From Escherichia phage FV3: a stretch of 64,000 bases of DNA. Position 1 is the first letter of the stretch, and every line of letters begins with the position of its first letter. Positions 1,942 through 55,474 of the stretch are shown piece after piece. The position numbers were made by a program, and so were the translations under genes. The stretch lies in the sequence record NC_019517.1; one strand, given 5' to 3'. The notes beneath the pieces were generated by a model, which saw only the letters and a program-made list of their open reading frames with translations, made no database searches and had not been told where the DNA came from.

Positions 1942-2567
1942 GAGAAAGACTGCTGTCTATAGACCAGTCTCTTACCCACACGGCCTGCGTTGTATGGGAC
2001 GATGGTAGGCCTGTTCATAAGGTTGTGTTACGAACCCAAAGCTCGTCTGCAAAAGAGAAGAAACCAGGGACGGTTTCTTTTGCAACAGCTGCTGAGCGTA
2101 TTGACTGGATCTGCAAACAGGTTAGATATTATATCCACACGCACCACGTTGACACCGTGGTCATGGAAGGGCTCTCCTTTGGATCGCGAGGAGATGCCAC
2201 ACGTGAACTGGCTGGGTTGTTTTACGGTCTTGAAGTTATGCTCTGGGATGCTTTAGCAGATTGTGAAAATGACGGCCTGTTTAAGGTCCACACAGTGACA
2301 CCAACAACTGCCAAAAAGTTTGCTCGTAGTCATCTTCCTGAAGAACTTGCTTTTGAGGAGAAGAAAAAGCTTGACAAAAAGACGGGTAAAGAGCATACTG
2401 TGAAGAAGCCTGTTACGATGGATAAAAAGTTGATGGTTAAGGCCTGTGAAGTATCTGAACCTGGGTTCCTAGATGGGATCAATTTGGTACAAGGTAAGGC
2501 CGATCTCGCAGATGCTTATTGGATAGGCAGGGCGCATCTGGAGGGATTATCGCAAAGCGTAAAATAA
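1938..2567 (+). CDS. RuvC-like Holliday junction resolvase (RNase H fold)
   Basis: 209-aa ORF; N-terminal SIDQS...TG..VW, central VVMEGLSFGSRGD and C-terminal ADLADAYWIG acidic motifs typical of RuvC-type resolvases. Confidence 0.55.
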   Translation: MRERLLSIDQSLTHTACVVWDDGRPVHKVVLRTQSSSAKEKKPGTVSFATAAERIDWICKQVRYYIHTHHVDTVVMEGLSFGSRGDATRELAGLFYGLEVMLWDALADCENDGLFKVHTVTPTTAKKFARSHLPEELAFEEKKKLDKKTGKEHTVKKPVTMDKKLMVKACEVSEPGFLDGINLVQGKADLADAYWIGRAHLEGLSQSVK

Positions 2568-3094
2568 GAAAGAAAGCTGTCAAAGCCCCCGTTCATAACG
2601 GGTGGCTAAAAGATTCTAAGGATATAGCCAACTTTCGGAAAGAATTGTCAGAAGAGCAGGATGGTCTTGATCCGATCTTGTGCGAACCACTTCGTAAGCC
2701 TTGTTTAGATCATGATCATCTGACTGGTCGTTGCAGGGGTGTTTTGTCCCAATGCACTAATACCTTTGAGGGGTATGTGCTTAAATACTGGATGAAATAC
2801 TGTAACGAGTATACAGATTGCAGTTTATCAGAGGCGTTGCGCCGGATGGCTGACTATCTGGAGAAAGACTACAGCGACTTCCCGCTCCACAAAAACTACA
2901 GGGACGATATGACAAAGTTCTTGAGGAGATGCTCTAAAGCTACGATTATTGCACGGGCAGAATCGGATCTCGATCTTGTCATTAATTCAGAGTACACCAA
3001 GCATGAGGCTATTGAGGCCTACATGCAGGAGTTTATAAAGAAAACTGAGGAGAGAGATTTCTATGGAGACGAAAAAGGTATTCAATCCTTGTGA
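2519..3094 (+). CDS. recombination endonuclease VII-like (T4 gp49 family)
   Basis: CLDHDHLTGRCRGVLSQCTN matches the endonuclease VII zinc/His-Me motif; no in-frame ATG, TTG start at 2519 overlaps upstream gene by 49 nt. Confidence 0.6.
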   Translation: MDRQGASGGIIAKRKIRKKAVKAPVHNGWLKDSKDIANFRKELSEEQDGLDPILCEPLRKPCLDHDHLTGRCRGVLSQCTNTFEGYVLKYWMKYCNEYTDCSLSEALRRMADYLEKDYSDFPLHKNYRDDMTKFLRRCSKATIIARAESDLDLVINSEYTKHEAIEAYMQEFIKKTEERDFYGDEKGIQSL

Positions 3095-3284
3095 TTCAGT
3101 TCTGATCAGGATGAAATACCGTAACTGGAAAGGTGTTGTTGCAGATCGCTGCGTTACTGAGCCTAGTTTATGGTTTGGCTCTACAGATTATCATAAAGAA
3201 GATCAGTGGTTGATGCATGCATTTGATGTAGACAAGGGCGAATATCGTGACTTCGCTTTAAAAGACATTCTTCAGTTTTACTAA
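3063..3284 (+). CDS. hypothetical protein
   Basis: 73-aa ORF, ATG with GAGGAGAGAG RBS. Confidence 0.45.
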   Translation: METKKVFNPCDSVLIRMKYRNWKGVVADRCVTEPSLWFGSTDYHKEDQWLMHAFDVDKGEYRDFALKDILQFY

Positions 3285-3296
3285 GGAATCTTAACG

Positions 3297-4280
3297 ATGA
3301 TGACAAAGTTAACTCTTGAGCAAATTTTAACACTAAAGCAACAGGGATACACCAATAGACAAATTGCTCGTGAATTTCTAGGTCGTGAGTCACGTGAGAG
3401 CTGGATCCGGCTACAGCTTAAACGTGCACAAGAGAATATGTCAGAGATTGTAGGAGAGGCAACGGAGCGCTTCCTTGAAGAACACAAAGGTGCTAAAGTT
3501 TGGGTGTATGATACAGAGACATCCCCAACAAACGGCTGGTTCTTTGGGCATTATAAGACCAACATTCAAACCTGCGGTATTGAAATTATGCCCTATATGC
3601 TAACTTTCGCAGGTAAATGGTTAGACAGCCCCAGTGTGGTTGACTGTGCTCTTCCTGATTACAAAATGTGGGGCGAGGATATCCACAACGATCTTGAGCT
3701 GATTCAAGATTTGTGGTATTATCTGGATAAATGTGATGTAGCAGTAGCACACAACTCTGGTTTTGACTGTGGGTGGGCCAACCAACGATTTGCATTTCAC
3801 GGTTTGCCGCCAACAAGCCCATACAAAGAGGTTGACACCCTCAAGATGATTAAAAAGGCATTCCGTTTGAATGCAAACACGTTAGAGTATGCATGTAAAT
3901 ACTTCCAACTGGCCCGACAGAAACTAATTGACCACACATTTGAAATGTGGATCAAGTGTGTTCATGGTGATCTTGAGGCGTTTAAACAGATGCGGGAGTA
4001 TAATGTTGGGGACATCTTGTCTCTGGAAGGCCTATATTTGCTGGCGCGTCCGTTTGCTAAGCAGCACCCCAACATGTCGTTGTACTACCAAGATGAGGAG
4101 TCAAAAGTTCGTTGCCCACGTTGTGGTGGAGAACACCTTCACGAGGAAGAGGCTTTGGCGTATACTCAACTGAGTGCATTTAAAACCTACCGCTGCGAAG
4201 GTTGTGGATCTGTTGTTCGTGATCGTAACAACATCCGTACCCGAGAAGAGATGAAAAACACCCTGATTCAGATAATCTGA
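3297..4280 (+). CDS. DnaQ-like 3'-5' exonuclease with N-terminal HTH and C-terminal zinc ribbon
   Basis: 327-aa ORF; HTH-like LKQQGYTNRQIAREF, exo motifs VYDTETS, AHNSGFDCGW, YNVGDIL, C-terminal CPRC...CEGC. Confidence 0.5.
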   Translation: MMTKLTLEQILTLKQQGYTNRQIAREFLGRESRESWIRLQLKRAQENMSEIVGEATERFLEEHKGAKVWVYDTETSPTNGWFFGHYKTNIQTCGIEIMPYMLTFAGKWLDSPSVVDCALPDYKMWGEDIHNDLELIQDLWYYLDKCDVAVAHNSGFDCGWANQRFAFHGLPPTSPYKEVDTLKMIKKAFRLNANTLEYACKYFQLARQKLIDHTFEMWIKCVHGDLEAFKQMREYNVGDILSLEGLYLLARPFAKQHPNMSLYYQDEESKVRCPRCGGEHLHEEEALAYTQLSAFKTYRCEGCGSVVRDRNNIRTREEMKNTLIQII

Positions 4281-4287
4281 CAAGTAG

Positions 4288-4310
4288 AGGGAGGCTTGCG
4301 CCTCCCTTTT
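4288..4310 (+). terminator. intrinsic terminator
   Basis: AGGGAGGC-TTGC-GCCTCCCT hairpin followed by TTTT. Confidence 0.5.
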
Positions 4311-4325
4311 CATTTTGGAGGCACC

Positions 4326-5132
4326 TTGAGCAAGAAAGAGTCCAACGACAAATATTACACAGACCCTGAGTATGCAGAATATCTTGTTGGTAAAGTAAAA
4401 GTTAGGTATGGGAATTGTGCATACGTTGAGCCTTCTGCTGGAAAGGGTTCTTTTTCAAAACTATTTTCAGAGATACTGTCGTACGATTTGGTACCAGATC
4501 CTGAATTTGAAGGCCCAACACCGTGTATTAAGGCAAACTTCTTAGAGGTGTACCCTAAGGCTGATGTCTTCATAGGTAATCCTCCATTCGGCAAAAATTC
4601 GTCTTTAGCTTGCAAGTTCTTTAACCACTGTGCATCATTGCTAGAGCCTGGCGGGGCTATAGCCTTCATCTTGCCACGGACATTTGAAAAAATATTTTTT
4701 GCAAACAAGCTGGACATGTCAATGCACCTTATCTACAGCGAAAGGTGCCCCAAGAACTCGTTTTTACTTAACGACAAACCTTATGACGTGCCATGTGTTT
4801 TCCAAATTTGGGAGAAAAAGGTGTGCAATAGGGATCCTGTAGAGATTGGGGAGAATAAGTTATTTTCTTTTAGCACACCAGATGACTACGACTTCTGCAT
4901 AAGACGTGTTGGGTATAATGCTGGAAAAGTATTGGGGGAGGATGACCCAAAATCTGAAGAATCAACATATTTCATAAAATCTTTAGTTGATGGTGTTGAC
5001 AGAGTGTTTGCTGAATGCTATTCTTCTTTTCAAGAAGAAGCAGGTAAGACTGCTGGAATGAAGAGTATAGGCAAGAAAGAACTACAATACATTTTGGAGA
5101 CTAGGTATGATCAAAAGTATAGACTTGACTAA
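4326..5132 (+). CDS. N6-adenine DNA methyltransferase (motif I then NPPF)
   Basis: EPSAGKGSF (motif I) and IGNPPFGK (motif IV); no in-frame ATG before the motifs, proposed TTG start at 4326 after GGAGG RBS. Confidence 0.6.
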   Translation: MSKKESNDKYYTDPEYAEYLVGKVKVRYGNCAYVEPSAGKGSFSKLFSEILSYDLVPDPEFEGPTPCIKANFLEVYPKADVFIGNPPFGKNSSLACKFFNHCASLLEPGGAIAFILPRTFEKIFFANKLDMSMHLIYSERCPKNSFLLNDKPYDVPCVFQIWEKKVCNRDPVEIGENKLFSFSTPDDYDFCIRRVGYNAGKVLGEDDPKSEESTYFIKSLVDGVDRVFAECYSSFQEEAGKTAGMKSIGKKELQYILETRYDQKYRLD

Positions 5133-8740: not shown

Positions 8741-8971
8741 ATGAGTCATAACTCCAAGTGGAAGGATCTTGGTTTTGCAAGTCGGGCAGAGTATGTTGGT
8801 TGGCTTTGGTTCAACGGTCTGACAAACGATATTAAAATGTATGATGATGTTTATTATGATGAATATACAGGTAAAATTATAAATATCTCTGTAGAAGAGG
8901 ATACTTTTATCCAACAAGACACTGATACCTGCCTTGATAAATACGTTGATGAAGTGGAGGAAGCAAATTGA
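8741..8971 (+). CDS. hypothetical protein
   Basis: ATG at 8741 after GGTGGTGAAG RBS; 76 aa, ends overlapping nrdA start. Confidence 0.4.
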   Translation: MSHNSKWKDLGFASRAEYVGWLWFNGLTNDIKMYDDVYYDEYTGKIINISVEEDTFIQQDTDTCLDKYVDEVEEAN

Positions 8972-11283
8972 TCACCAAGGTAATTAAAAGCAACGGATGT
9001 GAAGTGGCATTCGATCCAGAACGTTTAAATAAGGCAGCTATTTTCGGTGACGACGGTAACGGCAATTGGTCACATATTGCACTTGATGCATACAAACGGC
9101 TGTATGATGGGTGTACAACCAAAGAAGTTAACCAAGCTATCATAGACTCCTGTGTTAGCCGTAAAGACGAAGCTCATTCTCGTATGGCTGGTCGTGTTCT
9201 TATCGGTCAGATTTATAAAGAGGCTTTTGGAGGATTTACAAAGATCCCTTCCTTACCCTCATTTTACAATACCATGGTTGATAAAGGGTATTGGGAGGAT
9301 ATGGGTTATAGCTTTACCGAGTTAAACACTTTAGACGCTGTTATTGATCACAGTAAAGATCTCGGTTATGGCTATGCAGTCCTTAAACAGTTTCGCGACA
9401 AATATGGGATCAAGGATACTCTTAAAGACACCCTGTTTGAATCTCCCCAGATGATGTTTATGGGGATAGCAATGGCTGTCATGAAGAATATGCCGAAAGA
9501 ACGTCGTATCAACGATGTTGTAAAATTATACACTTATCTGTCGGACTTGAAGATTAATGCCCCGACACCGTACTTAAACGGTCTACGCACAGGTAAGACA
9601 GGGTATGCATCTTGTTGCGTAATAAAAGCTGACGATACAGCAAAATCTATTGGTGTGGCACGTGAAGTTGCGTACACAATGACGGTTAACCAAGCAGGTA
9701 TTGGCTACTATCTATCATCAAGATCTGCAGGTGATGGTGTTCGTGGTAACACTATTAAACATATGGGCAAGCTTCCATATTATCGAGGCATTGATGCTGG
9801 GGTTAAGGAGAATAGACAACAATCACGCGGAGGTTCGGCAACGGTATCATTCCTTGCGCTAGATCCCCAGATTGATGAACTGATCCGTTTGAGAAACCCT
9901 ATGACTGTTGCTTCAAAAAGAATCAACACTATGGACTACTCTATAGGTATTAATAGATCATTTATCAACCGTGTGGCTAAGAATTTAGATTGGATGCTTG
10001 TTTCTTATAAGCACGCACCTCAACTGCACGAGGGTATCTTCACCATGTCTATGGATGAGTTTGATGCAGAGGTTGATCGTATCGCTAAAGATGACAGCAT
10101 TCCTAAAACATGGATCCGTGCTAGAGACCTTGCTGTTGAACTGATCACGCAGCGTACCGAGGTAGGCAGGCTGTATGTGTACTGGACAGATGAGATGAAT
10201 AGGCATACACCTTTTAAAGATGTAATCTATTCAAGTAATCTGTGTGCAGAGATAGCCCTTCCGACAAAAGGCTATTCAGATATGCGTAATATCTTCAAGT
10301 ACGATGCTGATGATGGTGAGGTTGCATTGTGCTTCCTATCATCCCTTGTAGCTGGAAGGGTTACCCCAGAGGAGTATGAGGATGTTGCATACTACACTGT
10401 GCTTATGATTGACAATGTTATGGAAATCATGACATATCCGTATGAAAATATGGAGAGCACTGTTAAAAAACGCAGATCCATCGGGGTTGGCCTTACCAAT
10501 ATTGCACATTTTATTGCCAGCCACAAGGTTGCTTACGGGTCTCCTGAAAGTAAACAGCTTGTTCACGATCTTGCAGAGCTTCACAGCTACAGCTTGCATA
10601 AGGCAAGTTTACGATTGGCAAAAGAGCGTGGTGTCTGCGAGTGGATGCATAAAACAAAATACCCAGAGGGTTGGTTACCAATCGACACTTATAACAAAGA
10701 GGTCGATAGTGTGGTGAAAGATCCTTCTCTTAAGCAGGATTGGGAAGGGTTACGTAAAGAAATTATTGAAAACGGTGGACTACGTAATAGCGTTCTTGAA
10801 GCATATATGCCTAATGAAAGCTCCTCGTTGGCAACAAACACAACTAACGGGGTTTATCCTGTCCGTGAGCACATTATCTTTAAAAAGTCGCCACAAGGAC
10901 AGGTGCTGTTTATCGTTCCTGAATATGATGAACTGAAAGAGTATTATACCTCGGCTTGGGACGTTGATACTAACGACATGATTGATATGTATGCTGTGAT
11001 TCAAAAATTCACAGGACAGGCAATCAGTGCTGACCTATATATTGATTACACCAAGTTGAAAGATGGTAAAATTTCAATGAAGGAGCAGCTTGGGTATCTT
11101 ATCCGTGCTACTAAATTCGGGATGAAGACATGGTATTACTTAAACTCTCGGGTTGGTGCTGGTGACTCTTTGACAGAGGAGCTTCACGCGAAGAAACAGG
11201 CTGAAGATGAAACCAGAAAGAACTATCCTTTGATTGCAGATAGTTCAGTTGAAGATCCGTATTGCGAAAGTTGTGCACTGTAA
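8968..11283 (+). CDS. nrdA: ribonucleotide reductase class I large subunit
   Basis: 771-aa ORF; N-terminal ATP-cone (VIKSNGCEVAFDPERL), active-site NLCAEIALP, C-terminal Cys pair. Confidence 0.9.
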   Translation: MITKVIKSNGCEVAFDPERLNKAAIFGDDGNGNWSHIALDAYKRLYDGCTTKEVNQAIIDSCVSRKDEAHSRMAGRVLIGQIYKEAFGGFTKIPSLPSFYNTMVDKGYWEDMGYSFTELNTLDAVIDHSKDLGYGYAVLKQFRDKYGIKDTLKDTLFESPQMMFMGIAMAVMKNMPKERRINDVVKLYTYLSDLKINAPTPYLNGLRTGKTGYASCCVIKADDTAKSIGVAREVAYTMTVNQAGIGYYLSSRSAGDGVRGNTIKHMGKLPYYRGIDAGVKENRQQSRGGSATVSFLALDPQIDELIRLRNPMTVASKRINTMDYSIGINRSFINRVAKNLDWMLVSYKHAPQLHEGIFTMSMDEFDAEVDRIAKDDSIPKTWIRARDLAVELITQRTEVGRLYVYWTDEMNRHTPFKDVIYSSNLCAEIALPTKGYSDMRNIFKYDADDGEVALCFLSSLVAGRVTPEEYEDVAYYTVLMIDNVMEIMTYPYENMESTVKKRRSIGVGLTNIAHFIASHKVAYGSPESKQLVHDLAELHSYSLHKASLRLAKERGVCEWMHKTKYPEGWLPIDTYNKEVDSVVKDPSLKQDWEGLRKEIIENGGLRNSVLEAYMPNESSSLATNTTNGVYPVREHIIFKKSPQGQVLFIVPEYDELKEYYTSAWDVDTNDMIDMYAVIQKFTGQAISADLYIDYTKLKDGKISMKEQLGYLIRATKFGMKTWYYLNSRVGAGDSLTEELHAKKQAEDETRKNYPLIADSSVEDPYCESCAL

Positions 11284-11321: not shown

Positions 11322-12410
11322 ATGTCCGTATTTAATACTGAGAACACTGCTCATAAAACTGGTGATTATCCGCTGTTTCTAGGACAGCAGATGGGGATGT
11401 ACGACTCTATTAACAAAAAGTATCCACAGCTGTTTGAACTATACAAAAAACAAAAAGAACAAGATTGGGCAGAGGACGAAGTAGATTTGTCACAGTCTAT
11501 TTCTGATTTCGTAACATGCTCAAAGTCAACTTACGATGTGATGGTGCAGACACTGATGTGGCAATGGGAGGCAGACAGTGTTGCAGCAAGATCTATCATT
11601 TGTCTGTTTTCACCATTTATCACCAACAGTGAGCTTTTCACCTTGTTGATGAAGCAGTCTGAGATTGAGGTTCTTCATGCACTAACTTACTCAGAGATTG
11701 TTAGACAATGCCTTCCTAATGCTCGCGAGATTATAGAAGAGATTCAGGAAAACCAGAACGTGCTGAGCAGATCTGGAATTATTGTCAAATATATGCAAGA
11801 GCTTGAGGTTATTGGTGCAAAATACCGACTGGATCCTTCCAGTGTTGAAGAAGATGTTGTACGGAAATGTATCCTTAGAGCACTTTTTGCACTTTTAGCG
11901 CTAGAAAGTATTGAGTTTATTGCAAGTTTTGCATGTACGTTCGCAGTAGCTGAGCAAGGTATTTTTGTTCAAGTGGCACAACTTGTTCAAAAAATTATGC
12001 TTGATGAAATGCTGCATTCGAAAGGTGATTTTGCTATCATCGATATCCTGCTTGATGATCCTGCATGGGAGCAAAGCTTCCTTGAGATTAAGGGTGAGTT
12101 AAAAGAAATTCTTGACGAAGTGCGGACCAAGGAGTACGGTTGGAGTGACTATATTTTCAGCGAAGGAAGAGCAATTATAGGTCTTAACTCACCATTACTT
12201 AAAGAATGGGTTGACTATAACTGCTCACCGATTTATGATTACTACAACATCGACAAAGACTTTGTGCCGCCAACAAAAGACCCGCTACCGTTTATGCAGG
12301 TGTGGATGAAACCTTCACTGCAACAGACGGCTAACCAGGAAATGTCTAACACTGACTACCGCGTCAACACAACTGTTAACGACGCTGAAGAAGAAATTTG
12401 GGAGTTTTAA
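11322..12410 (+). CDS. nrdB: ribonucleotide reductase class I small subunit
   Basis: 362-aa ORF directly after nrdA; ferritin-like protein with conserved acidic/His ligands. Confidence 0.8.
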   Translation: MSVFNTENTAHKTGDYPLFLGQQMGMYDSINKKYPQLFELYKKQKEQDWAEDEVDLSQSISDFVTCSKSTYDVMVQTLMWQWEADSVAARSIICLFSPFITNSELFTLLMKQSEIEVLHALTYSEIVRQCLPNAREIIEEIQENQNVLSRSGIIVKYMQELEVIGAKYRLDPSSVEEDVVRKCILRALFALLALESIEFIASFACTFAVAEQGIFVQVAQLVQKIMLDEMLHSKGDFAIIDILLDDPAWEQSFLEIKGELKEILDEVRTKEYGWSDYIFSEGRAIIGLNSPLLKEWVDYNCSPIYDYYNIDKDFVPPTKDPLPFMQVWMKPSLQQTANQEMSNTDYRVNTTVNDAEEEIWEF

Positions 12411-12413
12411 TAT

Positions 12414-12692
12414 ATGAGCTGCGAAAAATCTTTTTTCATCATCATTTACGGTAAGGATAACTGCCCACATTGTGTAAGAGCAAAAGAATTTGCAGTCAGT
12501 AAAGGCATACCTTTCGTATACAAGACGCTAGGTGAAGGATACACAAAAGAAGAGCTTATCGAGAAGTGTAGCCCATTTGTTCCCAGAACGTTGCCTCAGA
12601 TCTTCTTGGAAAGCAACCTTGACAGTATCCACATAGGTGGTGCTGACGATTTCATCTCTTTTGTTAAGAATGGTTTTGGAGAGAAAAAGTGA
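12414..12692 (+). CDS. glutaredoxin-like protein (phage NrdC-type)
   Basis: 92-aa ORF with CPHC active site and C-terminal PQIF...IGGADDF typical of glutaredoxins. Confidence 0.7.
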   Translation: MSCEKSFFIIIYGKDNCPHCVRAKEFAVSKGIPFVYKTLGEGYTKEELIEKCSPFVPRTLPQIFLESNLDSIHIGGADDFISFVKNGFGEKK

Positions 12693-13549
12693 AAGTTGTA
12701 AAACGGGACGGTAGAGAAGAGTTTTATAACGGAATTAAGGTGATCAAGGCGGCAGAGTCCGCCTTACTTGAGTCTGGACATACTGAAGAAGAAGCTTACC
12801 GGATTGCCTGTGCGGTTAATGAAGTTGTTGCCAACAATCTGCCAACTGACCAGTGCACGATCTCTGTAAAAAATATCCATATCCTTGTTGAAGATGCTCT
12901 TATGGATATGGGTTTAAAATGTGCAGCCAGAGAATACATCCAGTATAGACAGACAAGAGATAATAACAGAGAGGCAGGTGGAAAACTGCTTGCCGATATT
13001 AGTGGCTTCTTGGATCGTACTTGTGATGAATTTACAAAAGAAAACGCAAATAAGCCTACTAATCATGTACACACTCATCGTGACCTGCTTGCAGGAATCC
13101 TTAGCAAACATCTTGCATCAACACAGATCCTGCCAGACCGTGTCTCAGAAGAGCACAACAAAGGCTTCATCCATGTGCATGATCTTGACTACCTGATCAG
13201 TCCGTTAACAAACTGTTGTTTGGTGAATTATCCGGATATGCTGGAAAACGGATTCAACATTGGCAACGCCCATGTCAGTAAGCCGAAGTCAATAGGGGTT
13301 GCAACAACAATCCTTAGCCAAATCTCTAGTGCAGTAGCTAGTGCTCAATATGGCGGTCAGACCATGAGTCATATTGATCATTATTTGGCACAGTATGCTG
13401 AAGCAACTTATGAGAAGAACCTTAAATTTTGTCAGGAACATTGGTTGCCAGATGCTGAGACTGTTGCAATGCAAATGACAGATAAAGACGTGTTTGATAG
13501 TATGCAAACTTTGCTCTACCAAATCAATACGTTAACTTCTGTCAACGGT
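12689..13549 (+). CDS. nrdD: anaerobic ribonucleoside-triphosphate reductase, exon 1
   Basis: N-terminal ATP-cone (VVKRDGREEFY); reading frame stops 1 codon past proposed 5' splice site; exon ends in T. Confidence 0.75.
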
Positions 13550-14347
13550 TAACAAACTGGCCGTTGTAAAACTCTCCTAACCTCATAAGAGGGGTCGGTA
13601 AATCCGGCTAACGGGGAACGCTAAGGCGAAAGCTATGCCAATCCCGTGACTAGTTCTTACAGGAGTTGGAACGGTTGTAACGACTAACGAAAGGCAGAGA
13701 TGCTTGACAAACATTTCTGAACCGAGTAGTGTAGGGGTTAGTTGAAATACTAACTTCGAAAGGGAGAGACTCTATGAAAAAGATCATTCTTAATGGTGAA
13801 GAATCGAACTACGTGATTGATGAGGTGGGAAACGTATACGGAAAACGTGGAATGCTGCACCCCATATTGTGGGGAGGTTATGGAAAAGGTAACAAGCATG
13901 TTAAACGCCGCTATATGTATTCTTTCAACCACAAAGGTAAGAAGATTCGAATCCAAACTTCAAGGGTTGTTGCCTTGTATTGTTTGCCAGATGTCCCAGA
14001 AGACCCTGAAAACTGGGAAGTGAATCATAAAGATGGCAATACATTGAATGATCATCCGTCTAACCTAGAGTGGGTTTTGCCGGAAGATAATAAGAGACAT
14101 GCTTTCCGAACAGGGCTTTGTCCAGGCAAGTGCTACAGGAAAGTGCAGGCATACCAAGGGAAAACCTTGGTGGGTGAATATCCTTCACTCTATGCCTGTG
14201 CAAAAGCCTTAAATTTGAACGTAGGGAACGTCCATAGGGCTATCGAAGGAAATGCCGAAGGTAAGCATCTCACAATAAAGGGTTATTATCTTATTGAAGT
14301 AGAGTAAGAGATAGTCTGGCCCTGTGGAAACACAGGGGTGGAGACAG
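13550..14347 (+). mobile_element. group I intron in nrdD with 5' catalytic core and 3' HNH homing-endonuclease ORF
   Basis: Intervening ~0.8 kb between two NrdD halves; 13550-13773 is non-coding with group I-like elements (AATCCGGCTAACGGGGAACG, TAACGACTAACG R-like); 3' boundary uncertain by ~10 nt. Confidence 0.6.
13774..14307 (+). CDS. HNH homing endonuclease (intron-encoded)
   Basis: 177-aa ORF with VNHKDGNTLNDHPSNLEW HNH motif; RBS AGGGAGAG. Confidence 0.8.
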   Translation: MKKIILNGEESNYVIDEVGNVYGKRGMLHPILWGGYGKGNKHVKRRYMYSFNHKGKKIRIQTSRVVALYCLPDVPEDPENWEVNHKDGNTLNDHPSNLEWVLPEDNKRHAFRTGLCPGKCYRKVQAYQGKTLVGEYPSLYACAKALNLNVGNVHRAIEGNAEGKHLTIKGYYLIEVE

Positions 14348-15607
14348 CAGACTCCATTCATCACATTAAGTTTAGGGCTGGATACTTCGGTCTTTGGTAG
14401 AATGATTACCAAAAACTACTTGAAAGTTCACAAAATGGGTCTTGGTGAAGAACGGATCACACCTGTGTTCCCTAAAGTGCTGTTCTTCTTAGAGGAGGGT
14501 GTCAACATGAACCCTGGGGATCCTAACTACAATTTGAAACGATTGGCCCTAGAATGCTCTGCAGAGCGGATTTATCCTGACTTTGTTTCTGTTCCGCTAA
14601 ATCGTAAAGTGACAGGTTCAACAGACGGCAAAGTAACAAGCATGGGATGTAGGTCGTTCCTTGGCAAATACGTTACCCCGGAGGGTGATGAAAAATACCT
14701 TGGCAGATTCAACTTGGGTGTTGTTAGCCTTAACCTACCAATGATTGCGGCAAAAGCTAAGACGGAAGGTATTGATTTCTTTGCAGTTCTTGACGAATAC
14801 TTGGATCTTGCATACGAGGCTCACCTTGTAAGGGTTAACCGTCTAAAAGGAACAAAGGCAGGGCAGAACCCTATCATGTGGTGTGAAGGAGCTCTTGCTC
14901 GCCTGGATCCTGAAGAGAGTATCGATAAACTCTTCTATGACGGGTACGCTTCCATCAGTATTGGGTATATTGGTGTGTATGAAACCTGTCAGATTTTGGG
15001 CAGAGAGGGTGACAAGGCTTTAGCTCTTGGAATCCTTCAGCACATGAAAGATGCTTGTGATCGATATAAGAAGGAAAGTGGACTAGCATTTAGCTTGTAC
15101 GGCACACCTTCTGAGAGTTTATGCTATAAAGCTGCAACCTGTCTGGATCGTGAATACCCAGAAGTGTTGAAGCACGAGCATGAATACCTCACCAACAGTT
15201 TCCATCAGCCGGTATGGATCAATAGCTCGCCTTTTGATAAGTGGAAGTATGAGGAAGGTTTTGCTATGATCTCCTCTGGTGGCAACATTGGGGACATAGA
15301 GACACCGAATCTGAAAAACAACTTAGATGCTTTAGAAGCTCTTGTTGATTTCGGATATAAACATATTATGTATTTTGGTATTAACCAGCCTGTGGATAAA
15401 TGTCTTAAGTGTGGATTCTCTGGCGAGTTCAGTGCAACAGCTAAAGGCTTTGTATGCCCAGAGTGTGGAAACCATGAAGAAGGAACGATCAGTGTGATCA
15501 GACGCGTATCCGGGTATCTGTCCAGTCCAAACTCCCGCCCTTACAATAAGGGTAAGCAAGCTGAGGTTATAGAACGGGTTAAGCACTACGGAAGTTGTGG
15601 TTGCTGA
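14348..15607 (+). CDS. nrdD: anaerobic ribonucleoside-triphosphate reductase, exon 2
   Basis: Frame open from 14315; C-terminal zinc ribbon CLKCG...CPECG and glycyl-radical motif RVSGYL. Confidence 0.8.
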   Translation, partial: QTPFITLSLGLDTSVFGRMITKNYLKVHKMGLGEERITPVFPKVLFFLEEGVNMNPGDPNYNLKRLALECSAERIYPDFVSVPLNRKVTGSTDGKVTSMGCRSFLGKYVTPEGDEKYLGRFNLGVVSLNLPMIAAKAKTEGIDFFAVLDEYLDLAYEAHLVRVNRLKGTKAGQNPIMWCEGALARLDPEESIDKLFYDGYASISIGYIGVYETCQILGREGDKALALGILQHMKDACDRYKKESGLAFSLYGTPSESLCYKAATCLDREYPEVLKHEHEYLTNSFHQPVWINSSPFDKWKYEEGFAMISSGGNIGDIETPNLKNNLDALEALVDFGYKHIMYFGINQPVDKCLKCGFSGEFSATAKGFVCPECGNHEEGTISVIRRVSGYLSSPNSRPYNKGKQAEVIERVKHYGSCGC

Positions 15608-15670: not shown

Positions 15671-15787
15671 ATGTCTACAGGTATTTATAAAATTTGCAAG
15701 TGTGGTTGTCATTGCAATCTTCGTTGGTGTAAGGCACTGGACGATTTTATTTGGCATTGTCCTAAATGCGACGCGGAGTATGTATGA
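15671..15787 (+). CDS. small Cys-rich protein (38 aa), putative zinc-binding
   Basis: ATG after AGGAGG RBS; MSTGIYKICKCGCHCNLRWCKALDDFIWHCPKCDAEYV; stop overlaps nrdG ATG (ATGA). Confidence 0.4.
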   Translation: MSTGIYKICKCGCHCNLRWCKALDDFIWHCPKCDAEYV

Positions 15788-16257
15788 ATATTGCCGGGTA
15801 TACAGAGATATCTTACACCGAGGGACCAGGTATTAGGACAGCTTTGTGGGTATCTGGGTGCCCACACGCTTGTCCTGGTTGCTTTAATCAAGCATTTTGG
15901 TCAAAAGATAAAGGAAGAGTGTTCACCGAAGAAGATTTGCAGAAAATTTTGTCGGATTTAGACAATGAATCTGTATGCGGTATTTCTTTACTAGGTGGAG
16001 AGCCTTTGGCTACTTATAATGAGCCAGGTATTATTGACCTTATGAGGAGAATTAAGGAAAAGTTTGGTGACAAGAAAACTATTCTTGTGTATACTGGGTT
16101 CACATTTGAGCATATCTCTAGTGATGTTCTTAAACTGGCTGATATCGTCATTGATGGAAAGTATGTAAAAGATTTACCAACCAAGAAACCATTCCGAGGC
16201 AGCGATAACCAAAGAATGTTTAAAAAGGTAGCAGGAGGTTGGGTTCAGGTTGACTAA
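15784..16257 (+). CDS. nrdG: anaerobic RNR activating protein (radical SAM)
   Basis: CPHACPGC cluster near N-terminus; ATG at 15784 chosen (ORF track start 15766). Confidence 0.8.
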   Translation: MNIAGYTEISYTEGPGIRTALWVSGCPHACPGCFNQAFWSKDKGRVFTEEDLQKILSDLDNESVCGISLLGGEPLATYNEPGIIDLMRRIKEKFGDKKTILVYTGFTFEHISSDVLKLADIVIDGKYVKDLPTKKPFRGSDNQRMFKKVAGGWVQVD

Positions 16258-52208: not shown

Positions 52209-53050
52209 CAACAGTTCAGGTAGGTCGTTAAGCTACCCCGCACCATTACGTGCATAGCCATACAGTTTCCCGTATGGATCGGACTATCTCACTGCCTTGT
52301 TACCAAGGCACCTCTCATTTCGACCGCACTTGCTGGCCTACTCTACTCGCTTCTTCACACCAAACTATGTTGGAGCTATGCTTTCGATAGTCTCTGAACG
52401 TTACTACCAGGTGTAGTTTTTAGAGATATGTTTCCACTGTCTTCTTTGCTTTATGGCCCTGACCGTTTCATAAGGATACCCAAGATCCCTAATCTCACAT
52501 TGTCGTAGACCGCTCTGTAACAGTTCGCAAATCTCAATTACCTCATCCTCGGTCAGCACAGCATTGGCATTATACTCGCCGACTGGCCTTACTCTGAGGT
52601 CATTATCGTAGGCGTGTTTGATATTTCCACCAGGGGTGGTCCACTCCAGGTTCCAGTATGCATTGTTGTACTTATTTCCATCCTTATGGTTCACCCATGT
52701 GAGCCTTTCAGGATCAGGGTTTGATACAAAGCATTCGGCAACTAAGTGGTGGACACCTTTTGTGTACTGCTTCCCCTCTATGAACATGGTCACGCAAAGG
52801 TAACCTCGACCATTATCAAAACAAAACATTGTTGTATGATCACGTTTCGATAAAGGTATTGTTCCATCATCAAACACGGTATACCCGTGATAATCAGCTG
52901 ATCTAGCCATTTTAACTACACCCCTTTAGTCTTCGCTGCGGATTAGCATATTGAGCTTTTACCATGTTTAGGTGTAAAAGTCAACTTAGCCTTCCCGTCA
53001 ATTAAAGAGGTTTTCGACGTGCATCACTGCACGAAGCCACAATGTTATTT
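52209..53050 (-). mobile_element. group I intron with HNH homing-endonuclease ORF, inserted in DNA polymerase motif C
   Basis: Exon 1 ends ...YYH with T before the intron and an immediate stop; intron ends in G before GAT GAG; 5' part has AATTGACGGGAAGGC (Tetrahymena AAUUGCGGGAAAGG-like), 3' part has GTTCAGAGACTATCG and GAGATAGTCCGATCC (R/S-like P7 elements). Confidence 0.8.
52404..52910 (-). CDS. HNH homing endonuclease (intron-encoded)
   Basis: 168 aa; WVNHKDGNKYNNAYWNLEW; paralogous to the nrdD intron endonuclease. Confidence 0.8.
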   Translation of the reverse strand: MARSADYHGYTVFDDGTIPLSKRDHTTMFCFDNGRGYLCVTMFIEGKQYTKGVHHLVAECFVSNPDPERLTWVNHKDGNKYNNAYWNLEWTTPGGNIKHAYDNDLRVRPVGEYNANAVLTEDEVIEICELLQSGLRQCEIRDLGYPYETVRAIKQRRQWKHISKNYTW

Positions 53051-55474
53051 ATGGTAATAAATAATACGACGAACACCTTCATCGTACCACCCACGCTTCA
53101 CCATTTGGTGGTGCATGAGTATCCCAACTAAATCACACAACGATGCACCGCCATTTTGTTGGTATGCATTAAGTAAAGAGTGTTTAGATCGGGTCCAGAT
53201 GGCATGACCATCAAAAGAGTAGATAAACTTCTTACCAGTTGCTTCCCAGAATTTCTCCAGATCCTCTTTACGCCCCTTAAGACCGGGGTTGGCATCCCAA
53301 AGCGCATCGATTACCCTTTGCCCCAACTCTGGAGAGATATCCAGCATGTCTGCAACTTTATCTTTTTGTGCCCCGTACATAACCCCATACGTGATAGGTT
53401 TACCGTCGTTACGAGACACCTCTCTGCCTGCTACTTTTGTATATGCCTCAGCATTGTTTTGGTGTGCGTCCCCGTTACTTACAACATCATAATACAGGCC
53501 GTTGTCAAACTCAAAGGCACCCCAAGCCCCGATAAGCTGCTCTAAGTTAGACCCGTCAATACCGATCTCAAAGTATCCTGGAGGAACACCCCACAGACTA
53601 CGCATCTCTTTACCCATAACCACTTTAGGAGATGGTTTAGGCATGTTTGCACAAATACTGTGTTTCTGTCTGGAAGTGTTTGTTAATCCAGAACTTTTAG
53701 CAGGAAGCTTATGGTCAATCTTCAAACGTGGGTGATTAAGAAGACCAGTATCAACCTTATCCTCCTTGATTGGATCAAGTACCGATCTACGGTTTCGCAA
53801 TGATAACCACAAAACGATATCTTTAGCCATCTCTCCGTTCAATTTTTCAAGATTAGGGCATAGGTGCCCAAACGTGTCTTTCAGTTGTGGAGAGGTAATA
53901 AGTGCTCTGGCCTTTCTACGTATCTTCCCAAACACTTCCTTTTTAACCCTTTCTGAGTTAGGGAAGCTTCGGAACTTATGCACAGTTGTCTGAAACTTGG
54001 CATCAGTTTTGTTCCAGAAGTTGATAATTAGGTCACAATACTCTGACTCCAAAAGCTCGTCCATATATGCATATACTCGTGCATCAACATCTGCATCAGG
54101 TAAAGCTTTCTTCTTGCTGTCTTTAGTTACATCCTTAGTTCTCCACATTGTTGGGAGCCAACCAGCACTGATCAGGTATCTCTTAATATCGTCCTGGTTG
54201 CTGATCTTCATAGGTATCTTGCAGTCAGGCATCCGCTTCTGCTGTAGATCACTTATTGCCTGGTCCATTAGCTCTTTAGGTAAAGGATGTGGTGTAGAGG
54301 TCCCTTTAATATACCCCCTTAAGAAATCAGCCATCTTATCGGGATCTTTGCAGCCCATCTCTTCACACCATTTTATCCCCATTTTGCTGACATCCCCTGT
54401 GGAGGTAAATGCTCGCTTAGGAGGAGCTTTGAACTCTAAAGCGCTCATGTCCACAGGATAGCCAAGCTTGTCTTTTAACCATTTCCAACCATTATTGGAG
54501 ATTGTCCCATCCTGGTTAAACGGCTTTTCAGGGAACTTAGGCCGCTGAGACATTGATAACTCTTTTAAAGGAAGTTGTGGTTCAACACGATCAGCGATCT
54601 CTTTCATCCACGCATCGCAGCGGTCACGTAAAGCAATAGCCCCATCTATGTCGAAATACACACCCTGTCGAGCCTGCAGCTCCATCAGGAAATGCTGCAG
54701 CATGCCTCGGCGTAATGCATTCTTCCAGGTAATCTTCTTGAATCCTTTAGGCTTCTCTTTGGCAGGGTCATACATAAAGTTCTGCATGTCAGATTTGCCG
54801 TAGAATACACCTTTTGATTCCGCTACCAACTCTTTCCAGAGCAACTCCTGGATGATAACGTCCTCGAACACACGATCCACATATTTCCACAGCGGAAGCT
54901 CACGCCAGTCATCGATTTGAACTTTCTGGTTACCAAGGGCGTAGCCCCATGCCATAAGGCCATGAGGCCCAACAGGCTGCATTTTCTTGGTAACTGGATT
55001 AAATACTGCGTCCGGACAACCTTTTGGCAAAGGTCGGTCAGGCCACAAGATTCGACTCATAGCCAACGTATCAAACAGATTAACCTGGTGGTCGTTGATA
55101 GTTCCCATACATTTAGGGTCACGGAACATATCAAAATGAACACCGGATAATCTTTCCATCAGCATAAAGTCATAGCTGTAGCAGTTATGGCAGTTCAAAG
55201 CTGTAGGTGACCAGTCTGAGTTACCTGTAAGCCAACCTTCCAACTCTGAAAAATCTGCTATGCGAACATCAAAATCTGTATAAAGGGTCTTCTTTGCCAG
55301 GATGAAGTTCTTAGCCTTCTCTACATCCTCTTCAGAGTAGTGTGTGCGGTCATTTAGAGGAAGGAACAGCATAAAACGGTTCTTATTCAACTCTTTAAAC
55401 AAACCGCAGTGATAATAAAGATCTGGGTCTTCCAGCAAGCCAGAGGCCTCAAAATCGAACGACCACATGCTCAT
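53051..55474 (-). CDS. DNA polymerase (family A), exon 1 (3'-5' exonuclease and polymerase motifs A/B)
   Basis: Exo I FDFEASG; motif A GIDGSNLEQL; motif B RNDGKPITYGVMYG; FDGHAIWTRSKHSLLNAYQQNGGASLCDL parallels T7 gp5; frame stops one codon after H of the HDE motif. Confidence 0.85.

Follow-up and report, generated by a model that had tools for sequence, protein, structure and literature searches.

The anaerobic ribonucleoside-triphosphate reductase gene nrdD of Escherichia phage FV3 is very probably interrupted by a mobile, self-splicing group I intron, IA2-like and of the type found in Bacillus phage SPO1, which occupies positions 13550-14347 of the stretch analysed here (the window; 64,000 nucleotides (nt) of sequence record NC_019517.1) and incorporates a gene for an I-HmuI-like HNH homing endonuclease. 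The presence/absence polymorphism of the insert among related phages, a full set of helices with compensatory changes and a score of 57.5 bits against the covariance model R1, described below, all support the interruption of nrdD by a group I intron with an HNH gene, which had been proposed in an earlier note on this DNA. Further support comes from a version of the intron that lacks the open reading frame (ORF) at the same site, and from the full-length alignment of the encoded protein with I-HmuI. The window derives from an rV5-like Escherichia coli phage (Vequintavirus), and the region is 93-95 % identical to those of phages phiWec193, FFH2, the BASEL phages and others. The interrupted gene and its insert comprise the following features:

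12689-13549, plus strand: nrdD exon 1, 287 codons, with a GTG start overlapping the glutaredoxin stop.
13550-14347, plus strand: probable group I intron (IA2-like, SPO1 type), 798 nt, absent precisely in intron-less sister phages.
13774-14307, plus strand: ORF for a putative I-HmuI-like HNH homing endonuclease, 177 amino acids (aa), in the P8 loop.
14348-15607, plus strand: nrdD exon 2, 419 codons and stop, with CAG ACU CCA as its first codons.

The two halves of nrdD could be joined unambiguously. The ORF at 12689-13552 contains a Pfam ATP-cone domain (residues 1-91; E = 4e-14) and positions 1-154 of the NRDD profile, and the ORF at 14324-15607 matches positions 155-562 of the same profile from its eighth residue on, as well as the Gly_radical domain. 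Exon 2 encodes the remainder of the NrdD core, together with the glycyl-radical domain and a zinc ribbon at the C-terminus, and the earlier description of an ATP-cone half (12689-13549) and a glycyl-radical half (14348-15607) separated by approximately 0.8 kb agrees with these Pfam matches. As profile positions 154 and 155 are adjacent in the two halves, the break is exactly contiguous in profile coordinates. Exon 1 closes with the codons ...GUC AAC GGU and is followed directly after U13549 by an in-frame UAA, while the intron ends in G14347; a terminal U, an immediate stop and a G ahead of exon 2 had all been anticipated. Position 13549 was joined to 14348 in silico and phage genomes were searched with the resulting 503-base junction piece, which gave a gapless match over 503/503 bases in about 80 intron-less genomes. 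Phage YP-6, which is intron-less at this site, matches the piece at 98.8 %, and dozens of other genomes do so at 92-95 %. The spliced protein has 706 aa, slightly fewer than the approximately 714 aa estimated before, and aligns with the sequence of the T4 NrdD crystal structure without a gap across the junction ('...INTLTSVNGQTPFITLSLG...' opposite '...VNTLFSSNGQTPFVTITFG...' in T4, where the break point corresponds to SSNG/QTPF, the stroke marking the insertion point). The spliced messenger RNA would read ...GUCAACGGU/CAGACUCC... and the protein ...SVNG-QTPF.... Alignment of the halves to intact NrdD and comparison with intron-less relatives therefore remove the uncertainty of about 10 nt that had attached to the 3' end, and place the junction at 13549/14348. 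Splice sites after G14338, G14341 and G14343, which could be considered on the basis of the reading frame alone, are excluded by the gapless intron-less junction and by the synonymous-only differences that set in at 14348.

Of approximately 117-119 close relatives, about 27 have the ORF-bearing intron, 14 contain an ORF-less intron of 257 nt at the identical site and the remainder have neither. In the GenBank records of the BASEL phages, the nrdD genes of the sister phages are annotated as a two-piece join for both intron forms, with intron boundaries that the authors set by comparative genomics (PMC8594841). These records place the nrdD start 213 nt downstream of GTG 12689, such that the ATP-cone (window positions 12689-12901) is left out. 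Many other GenBank records list the pieces as separate 'anaerobic ribonucleoside-triphosphate reductase' coding sequences (CDSs) with a 'hypothetical protein' between them. No published description of an nrdD intron at 13549/14348 was found in the literature searched; the rV5 genome paper mentions introns in the terminase gene only (PMC3606486), and in the accessible part of the supplement to a 2025 survey of published phage introns, nrdD introns are given for T-even phages only (PMC11878797). The nrdD intron is thus unpublished, but already annotated in GenBank.

The RNA of the insert can be folded into a group I core in which P3-P8, P4-P6 and P7 with J6/7 and J8/7 are all present. Each helix was checked base by base, and pairings were judged strand by strand, as the MAFFT alignment misplaced the P3 3' strand of the ORF-less sequences. 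The elements are as follows:

13543-13549 and 13560-13566, plus strand: P1, exon CAACGGU with guide GCCGUUG, 7/7 pairs.
14348-14350 and 13557-13559, plus strand: P10, exon 2 CAG with CUG, 3/3 pairs.
13572-13577 and 13763-13768, plus strand: P3, CUCUCC with GGAGAG, 6/6 pairs.
13581-13584 and 13589-13592, plus strand: hairpin 1, between P3 and J3/4.
13594-13598 and 13604-13608, plus strand: hairpin 2, between P3 and J3/4.
13609-13688, plus strand: J3/4 (UAA) through the P7 5' strand, from the Rfam alignment of P4-P6-P7, pairs verified.
13611-13616 and 13642-13647, plus strand: P4.
Within 13620-13675, plus strand: P5/P5a and P6/P6a, followed by J6/7.
13682-13686 and 14312-14316, plus strand: P7, GACUA with UAGUC.
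13695-13702 and 13712-13719, plus strand: P7.1, 8/8 pairs.
13734-13742 and 13749-13757, plus strand: P7.2, 9/9 pairs.
13769-13775 and 14299-14305, plus strand: P8, ACUCUAU with GUAGAGU, with the HNH ORF as its loop.
Between the 3' strands of P8 and P7, plus strand: J8/7, AAGAGA, single-stranded.
14320-14326 and 14331-14337, plus strand: P9, CCCUGUG with CACAGGG, GAAA loop, followed by a 10-nt tail and G14347.
14299-14347, plus strand: 3' ribozyme segment, from the Rfam alignment of J8/7-P7'-P9; the P8 3' strand overlaps the UAA stop of the ORF.

The 224-nt non-coding segment at 13550-13773, for which group I-like elements had been claimed, does contain them, with CGACUAAC at 13681-13688, and ACGACUA ... 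AAGAGAUAGUC aligns to the Rfam group I consensus (P7, J6/7 and J8/7). The core does not lie wholly ahead of the ORF, as had been thought: P8', J8/7, P7' and P9 are found in the 42-49 nt after it, and the ORF thus constitutes the P8 loop. The pair U13549·G13560 closes P1 at the 5' splice site, and the terminal base (omega G) is fixed as G14347 by the intron-less junction. IA2 introns are distinguished by additional P7.1 and P7.2 helices between P7 and P3', joined by G-U-A (PMC3428280), and both helices occur here, with a 14-nt linker (13720-13733) between them whose last three bases are GUA (13731-13733).

Compensatory or wobble-keeping changes were observed in P1, P3, both hairpins between P3 and P4, P7.2, P8 and P9 when the window was compared with its sister phages, phage AlexBoehm, which has the ORF-less intron, and L044, a metagenomic locus with an orthologous intron. 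P1 reads AAACGGU/GCCGUUU in AlexBoehm, a C-G to A-U exchange in which the exon codon GUC is replaced by GUA and the end of the guide, UUG, by UUU; P9 shows a C-G to U-A exchange in the same phage, and both hairpins likewise have compensatory changes against it. A13749G in MaxBurger retains a U·G pair with U13742 (P7.2) and A13769G in relatives a G·U pair with U14305 (P8). Further differences from the closest intron-bearing relatives lie in single-stranded joints, and the tail after P9 varies by a 1-nt indel in sister phages. The ORF-less intron RNA folds better than all 200 shuffled versions of itself (z = -3.35). P3 covaries over seven independent class members, including SPO1 (CCCAGUG/CGCUGGG): it reads CUCUGC/GCAGGG in AlexBoehm, and CACGGUG/CGCCGUG, UGUGGUG/UGCCACA, CGUGGUG/UGCCACG, UCGGGUG/CGCCCGA and CUCUUC/GGAGAG in members from the IMG/VR database. 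Two other placements of P3 were rejected. The 5' strand beside P4 that the Rfam alignment suggests (CGCUGGC in AlexBoehm) lacks an equivalent in the window, and UCGGU/ACCGA would place P3' between P7.1 and P7.2 at a position that is not conserved. The pairing 13572-13577/13763-13768 was preferred as its arrangement holds in every class member.

The Rfam group I model RF00028, at its gathering threshold of 50 bits, gave no match in the window or in three sister loci. In permissive E-value mode on short stretches, the window scores 25.1 bits for the 3' segment and 11.3 bits for P4-P6, and the ORF-less intron is matched over its full length (29.8 bits; E = 5e-6), with E-values of 5e-6 to 4e-4 among the RF00028 hits overall. 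The covariance-model search that the earlier note had suggested thus returned group I matches at 25-30 bits, but below the Rfam threshold. A control, the SPO1 DNA-polymerase intron, which is a confirmed splicing control (PMC11878797), is likewise below threshold at 25.6 bits. These low scores can be ascribed to the two hairpins that separate P3 from J3/4, for which the Rfam model has no room. This layout, P3-AA-hairpin-GUGU-hairpin-GCUAA-P4, is common to SPO1 (130-990 of locus L064, with two hairpins between P3 and J3/4), the window and about 44/59 IMG/VR loci. The P4/P5 motif was found in 55 IMG/VR loci, most of which have the two-hairpin layout (members include L006, L009, L017, L020, L034, L044 and L047). 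'SPO1-type' is used here as a working name for introns with two such hairpins and with the ORF, if there is one, in the P8 loop, which is the arrangement in the window, SPO1 and L044. A literature search for 'P3.1/P3.2' as published helix names gave nothing relevant. Model R1, which covers the P3-to-P7 domain, was built from 14 IMG/VR loci of the two-hairpin layout, without the Vequintavirus copies of the nrdD intron and without SPO1, but with L044, an orthologous same-site intron from an unrelated phage. It yields a single match in the 64-kb window (13571-13687; 57.5 bits, E about 3.5e-10) and scores 54.1 bits on the SPO1 intron.

The 177-aa ORF that follows the 224-nt segment had been recognised as an HNH gene, and its HNH_3 match (29.4 bits; residues 78-107) exceeds the Pfam cut-off of 24.8 bits. 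The I-HmuI NUMOD-like domain (PF22083) reaches 18.4 bits, under the cut-off of 27, such that a C-terminal DNA-binding domain is not detected by this profile; the alignment with I-HmuI (PDB 1U3E; residues 8-160 against 8-159, E = 5e-4) spans the NUMOD-like region. The protein is assigned to PHROG 59 (E = 2e-26), the commonest intron-encoded HNH family in the Herelleviridae (PMC11878797). In a collection of 50,697 phage genomes, this ORF occurs in these Vequintaviruses only, the next best match being from a Bacillus phage (31 %). Codon differences from the sister phages are predominantly synonymous (15-16, against 1-2 non-synonymous), and the ORF is therefore kept by purifying selection. Its likely Shine-Dalgarno sequence, GGGAGAG (13762-13768), includes the P3 3' strand GGAGAG, and the first two bases of its AUG (13774-13776) lie inside the P8 5' strand. 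The orthologue in L044 has the same arrangement of P3', Shine-Dalgarno sequence, P8 and AUG. With the ribosome-binding site in P3 and the AUG in the P8 stem, ribozyme folding and translation of the endonuclease should compete.

On the basis of these elements a course of events can be proposed, in which catalytic splicing, endonuclease activity, the cleavage site and translational coupling are all predictions. Transcription of the operon would run through the intron, and the last seven bases of exon 1 would pair with the internal guide to form P1, with U13549·G13560 at the splice site. The core would fold into P3-P8, P4-P6, P7 with P7.1 and P7.2, and P9 with its GAAA loop, after which free guanosine would attack behind U13549. 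G14347 would then take the guanosine site and exon 1 would be joined to C14348, with P10 (CAG/CUG) positioning exon 2, to give the messenger RNA of an uninterrupted 706-aa NrdD. Ribosomes would be halted before they enter the core by the UAA that adjoins the splice site. The HNH enzyme presumably nicks or cuts the intron-less nrdD of co-infecting relatives near the NG/QTPF codons, and recombinational repair would copy the intron and a few flanking bases (homing).

Site-specific cutting and homing are presumably properties of this enzyme, as indicated indirectly by the polymorphism, by the differences from YP-6 at the junction and by the L044 orthologue. The exons of the window and YP-6 differ at 8 positions in 1160 nt, of which three (13549, 14350 and 14353) lie at most six bases from the insertion site. 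The G to U change at 13549, from YP-6 to the window, supplies the U needed for P1, and the difference at 14350 completes the third P10 pair (CAG with guide CUG). Such junction-hugging differences would look like a very short co-conversion tract, or like selection for splice-site pairing after homing. L044 (IMGVR_UViG_3300033120_000502; reverse strand, approximately 3460-4500) contains the orthologous intron and HNH gene at the same NG/Q boundary, in a distant, AT-rich, T4-like nrdD. Its HNH protein shares 46 % aa identity with that of the window over the full length, and its P3 and P8 are arranged as in the window.

Some points weigh against an active, mobile intron. Splicing is deduced from the comparisons and folds, and the activity and target of the endonuclease from homology at E = 5e-4. 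P10 is short, with 3 base pairs (bp) in the window and 2 bp in AlexBoehm. The intron is under the curated Rfam threshold (25-30 against 50 bits), compared with 105 bits for the T4 nrdD intron. Some circularity attaches to the R1 score, because a 22-nt P4/P5 pattern from the nrdD intron itself was used to collect the training loci; SPO1, which R1 also matches, does not share the exact pattern. Finally, class I ribonucleotide reductase (RNR) genes are also present in the phage, and a non-functional nrdD would thus not necessarily be lethal.

Three other explanations of the locus were considered. It is very unlikely that the insert is non-splicing and that the two NrdD halves are translated separately and assembled thereafter, as has been reported for the NrdA of Aeromonas phage Aeh1 with its mobE gene. 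The exon 2 frame is open back to GTG 14324, non-splicing HNH inserts occur in the CB7 nicotinamide phosphoribosyl transferase gene as well as in Aeh1 NrdA (PMC7344957), and splicing at nrdD is itself deduced. However, GTG 14324, the sole start candidate shortly ahead of exon 2, is part of the P9 stem and has no ribosome-binding site at a suitable distance, and the 1-nt indel between it and 14348 in sister phages means that it is out of frame there. The next in-frame starts (ATG 14402 and TTG 14420) would remove conserved residues. For a split gene, an independent, conserved start of the downstream half and no ribozyme would be expected; no such start was found, and a complete, covarying ribozyme core is present on both sides of the ORF. 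Furthermore, 14 genomes retain at this site the ORF-less 257-nt form, which has no endonuclease to account for it, and without splicing there would be no reason for this form to persist.

Decay of a former group I intron that has become splicing-defective, leaving nrdD as a dispensable pseudogene beside the class I RNR, is highly improbable. The sub-threshold Rfam score would suit such a history, as would the nrdA, nrdB and glutaredoxin genes immediately upstream, and the endonuclease of the T4 nrdB intron is known to be defunct in T4 according to two reports (PMC1865063, PMC2790892). Against this, both exons are open and their codon differences from relatives are mainly synonymous (93-123 synonymous against 12-21 non-synonymous), substitutions in the helices keep the pairing and the HNH ORF is under purifying selection; the SPO1 intron, for which splicing is confirmed, has a similarly low Rfam score. 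The locus is almost certainly neither a free-standing HNH gene lodged between two partial nrdD genes that are unrelated to each other nor an artefact of assembly or recombination, as the pieces, despite being listed as separate CDSs in many GenBank records, abut at NRDD positions 154/155 and in T4 NrdD, and the arrangement recurs in 26-27 independently sequenced genomes.

A self-splicing intron with its own homing endonuclease therefore remains the preferred reading of the nrdD insert. A wider proposal, which combines two ideas and is doubtful as a whole, is that the two-hairpin SPO1-type layout marks a large class of phage introns missed by the single group I model of Rfam, and that in this intron the ribozyme fold gates endonuclease synthesis, translation delays NrdD and the enzyme favours carriers in co-infection. 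For an intron endonuclease of phage PhiPA3, a competitive edge during co-infection has been reported (PMC11620839). If the proposal is true, SPO1-type introns would be widely mis-annotated as split genes.

The nrdD gene is located within a cluster of nucleotide-metabolism genes, all encoded on the same strand:

First in local order, plus strand: thymidylate synthase ThyX-like gene, preceding nrdA.
8968-11283, plus strand: nrdA, of the cluster immediately upstream.
11322-12410, plus strand: nrdB.
12414-12692, plus strand: glutaredoxin gene, directly before nrdD.
15766-16257, plus strand: nrdG, after nrdD.

A second group I intron is found in the family-A DNA polymerase gene of the window (RF00028, 30.4 bits, E = 1.6e-5; 52259-53060, minus strand):

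52404-52910, minus strand: HNH ORF of the polymerase intron, in the P6 loop.
53045-55474, minus strand: polymerase exon 1.

This intron has a canonical J3/4, is structurally unlike the nrdD intron and is carried by 28/119 relatives; in the BASEL phage HeinrichReichert the polymerase is annotated as a join. It had been suggested that the two HNH proteins of the window are paralogs and that the endonuclease has colonised two essential genes. Relatedness holds at the family level, with both proteins in PHROG 59, but the similarity between them is confined to an HNH motif block of 48 residues (48 % identity). Likewise, the polymerase gene does contain an intron with an HNH gene, but the intron is of a different structure and the enzymes are distant family members. 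Judged from their sequences, both proteins belong to one large family and are not recent duplicates.

Within nrdD itself, another intron site lies at a conserved-cysteine codon, which in the window corresponds to the empty position 14647/14648 (GGA/TGT; SMG/CRSF). JEP1, YP-6, phita32 and 'Campylobacter phage C2' have an IA2 intron there that resembles T4 sunY and contains, in P6, an HNH ORF of 169 aa (L002 2458-3219; L061 about 2350-3110). JEP1 has both nrdD introns, while YP-6 has only that at 14647/14648. Across coliphages, three independent intron sites thus occur within about 1.1 kb of nrdD, and its conserved core can be considered a hotspot that has been invaded independently at at least three nearby sites (that of T4, one 32 nt downstream of it and the catalytic-cysteine codon). 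About 20 GenBank 'Campylobacter phage' records (MG0656xx; host given as C. jejuni) share 92-95 % identity with E. coli Vequintaviruses in nrdD and the polymerase region, and their host labels look doubtful.

With the exact splice coordinates, a single correct 706-aa NrdD can be annotated for these E. coli phages, which are relevant to therapy; in the majority of their GenBank records, two or three fragments labelled 'NrdD' are listed along with a 'hypothetical protein'. A ribozyme and endonuclease type known from Gram-positive Bacillus phages also occurs in coliphages and in an unrelated, T4-like phage from a metagenome. In practical terms, the Rfam group I model overlooks the SPO1-type class when it is applied at its curated threshold. 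The nrdD intron is an ordinary type of phage selfish element, and the understanding of group I intron function is unchanged by it.

Several known systems resemble the nrdD intron to different extents. The nrdA/mobE locus of Aeromonas phage Aeh1 likewise consists of an RNR gene broken by an HNH gene, with separately annotated halves, and its insert is non-splicing, with the halves translated separately (PMC7344957). The window differs in having a complete ribozyme and no conserved start for the second half.

The ORF-less 257-nt intron of AlexBoehm, HeinrichReichert, RudolfGeigy, CM1 and others has the same insertion site as the window intron and is 86 % identical to it over the 5' half (P1 to P7) and 90 % over the J8/7-P9 segment. 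Between these, 74 unrelated nt (L001 1503-1576) replace window positions 13689-14305 and form their own P7.1, P7.2, P3' and P8, which rules out that the ORF-less form is a deletion derivative of the ORF-bearing one. The two forms look like a mosaic, not like a parent and its deletion derivative.

In T4, the nrdD (sunY) intron is located in the same conserved stretch of this gene (...YEYEVNTLFSSNGQTPF...). It is also an IA2 intron without P2, with the order P7-P7.1-P7.2-P3'-P8, and its first four bases are UAAC as in the window. Its insertion point is 32 nt upstream (GAGU/AUGAA in T4, locus L004 2536-5386), corresponding to 13517/13518 of the window, and no nucleotide similarity between the two introns was detected by blastn. 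In contrast to the window intron, that of T4 lacks the two hairpins and its J3/4 is canonical; its RF00028 score is 105 bits, and its ORF encodes a GIY-YIG enzyme (I-TevII) and lies 3' of P9, with the core complete before it.

The nearest systems in ribozyme layout, ORF position and enzyme family are the DNA-polymerase introns of phages SPO1 and SP82, which encode I-HmuI and I-HmuII. The nick that I-HmuI makes is in the template strand, 3 nt downstream of the insertion site, both enzymes nick this strand a few nt downstream of it, and intron-containing DNA is also cut (PMC3428280). SPO1 differs from the window in its host gene (DNA polymerase as opposed to nrdD) and in being a Bacillus phage as opposed to a Gram-negative coliphage; its second hairpin is long, whereas that of the window is short, and the protein similarity is distant (E = 5e-4). 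The two introns nevertheless share the succession of P3, AA, a hairpin, GUGU, a second hairpin, GCUAA and P4, have P7.1 and P7.2 joined by GUA, and incorporate the endonuclease ORF in the P8 loop.

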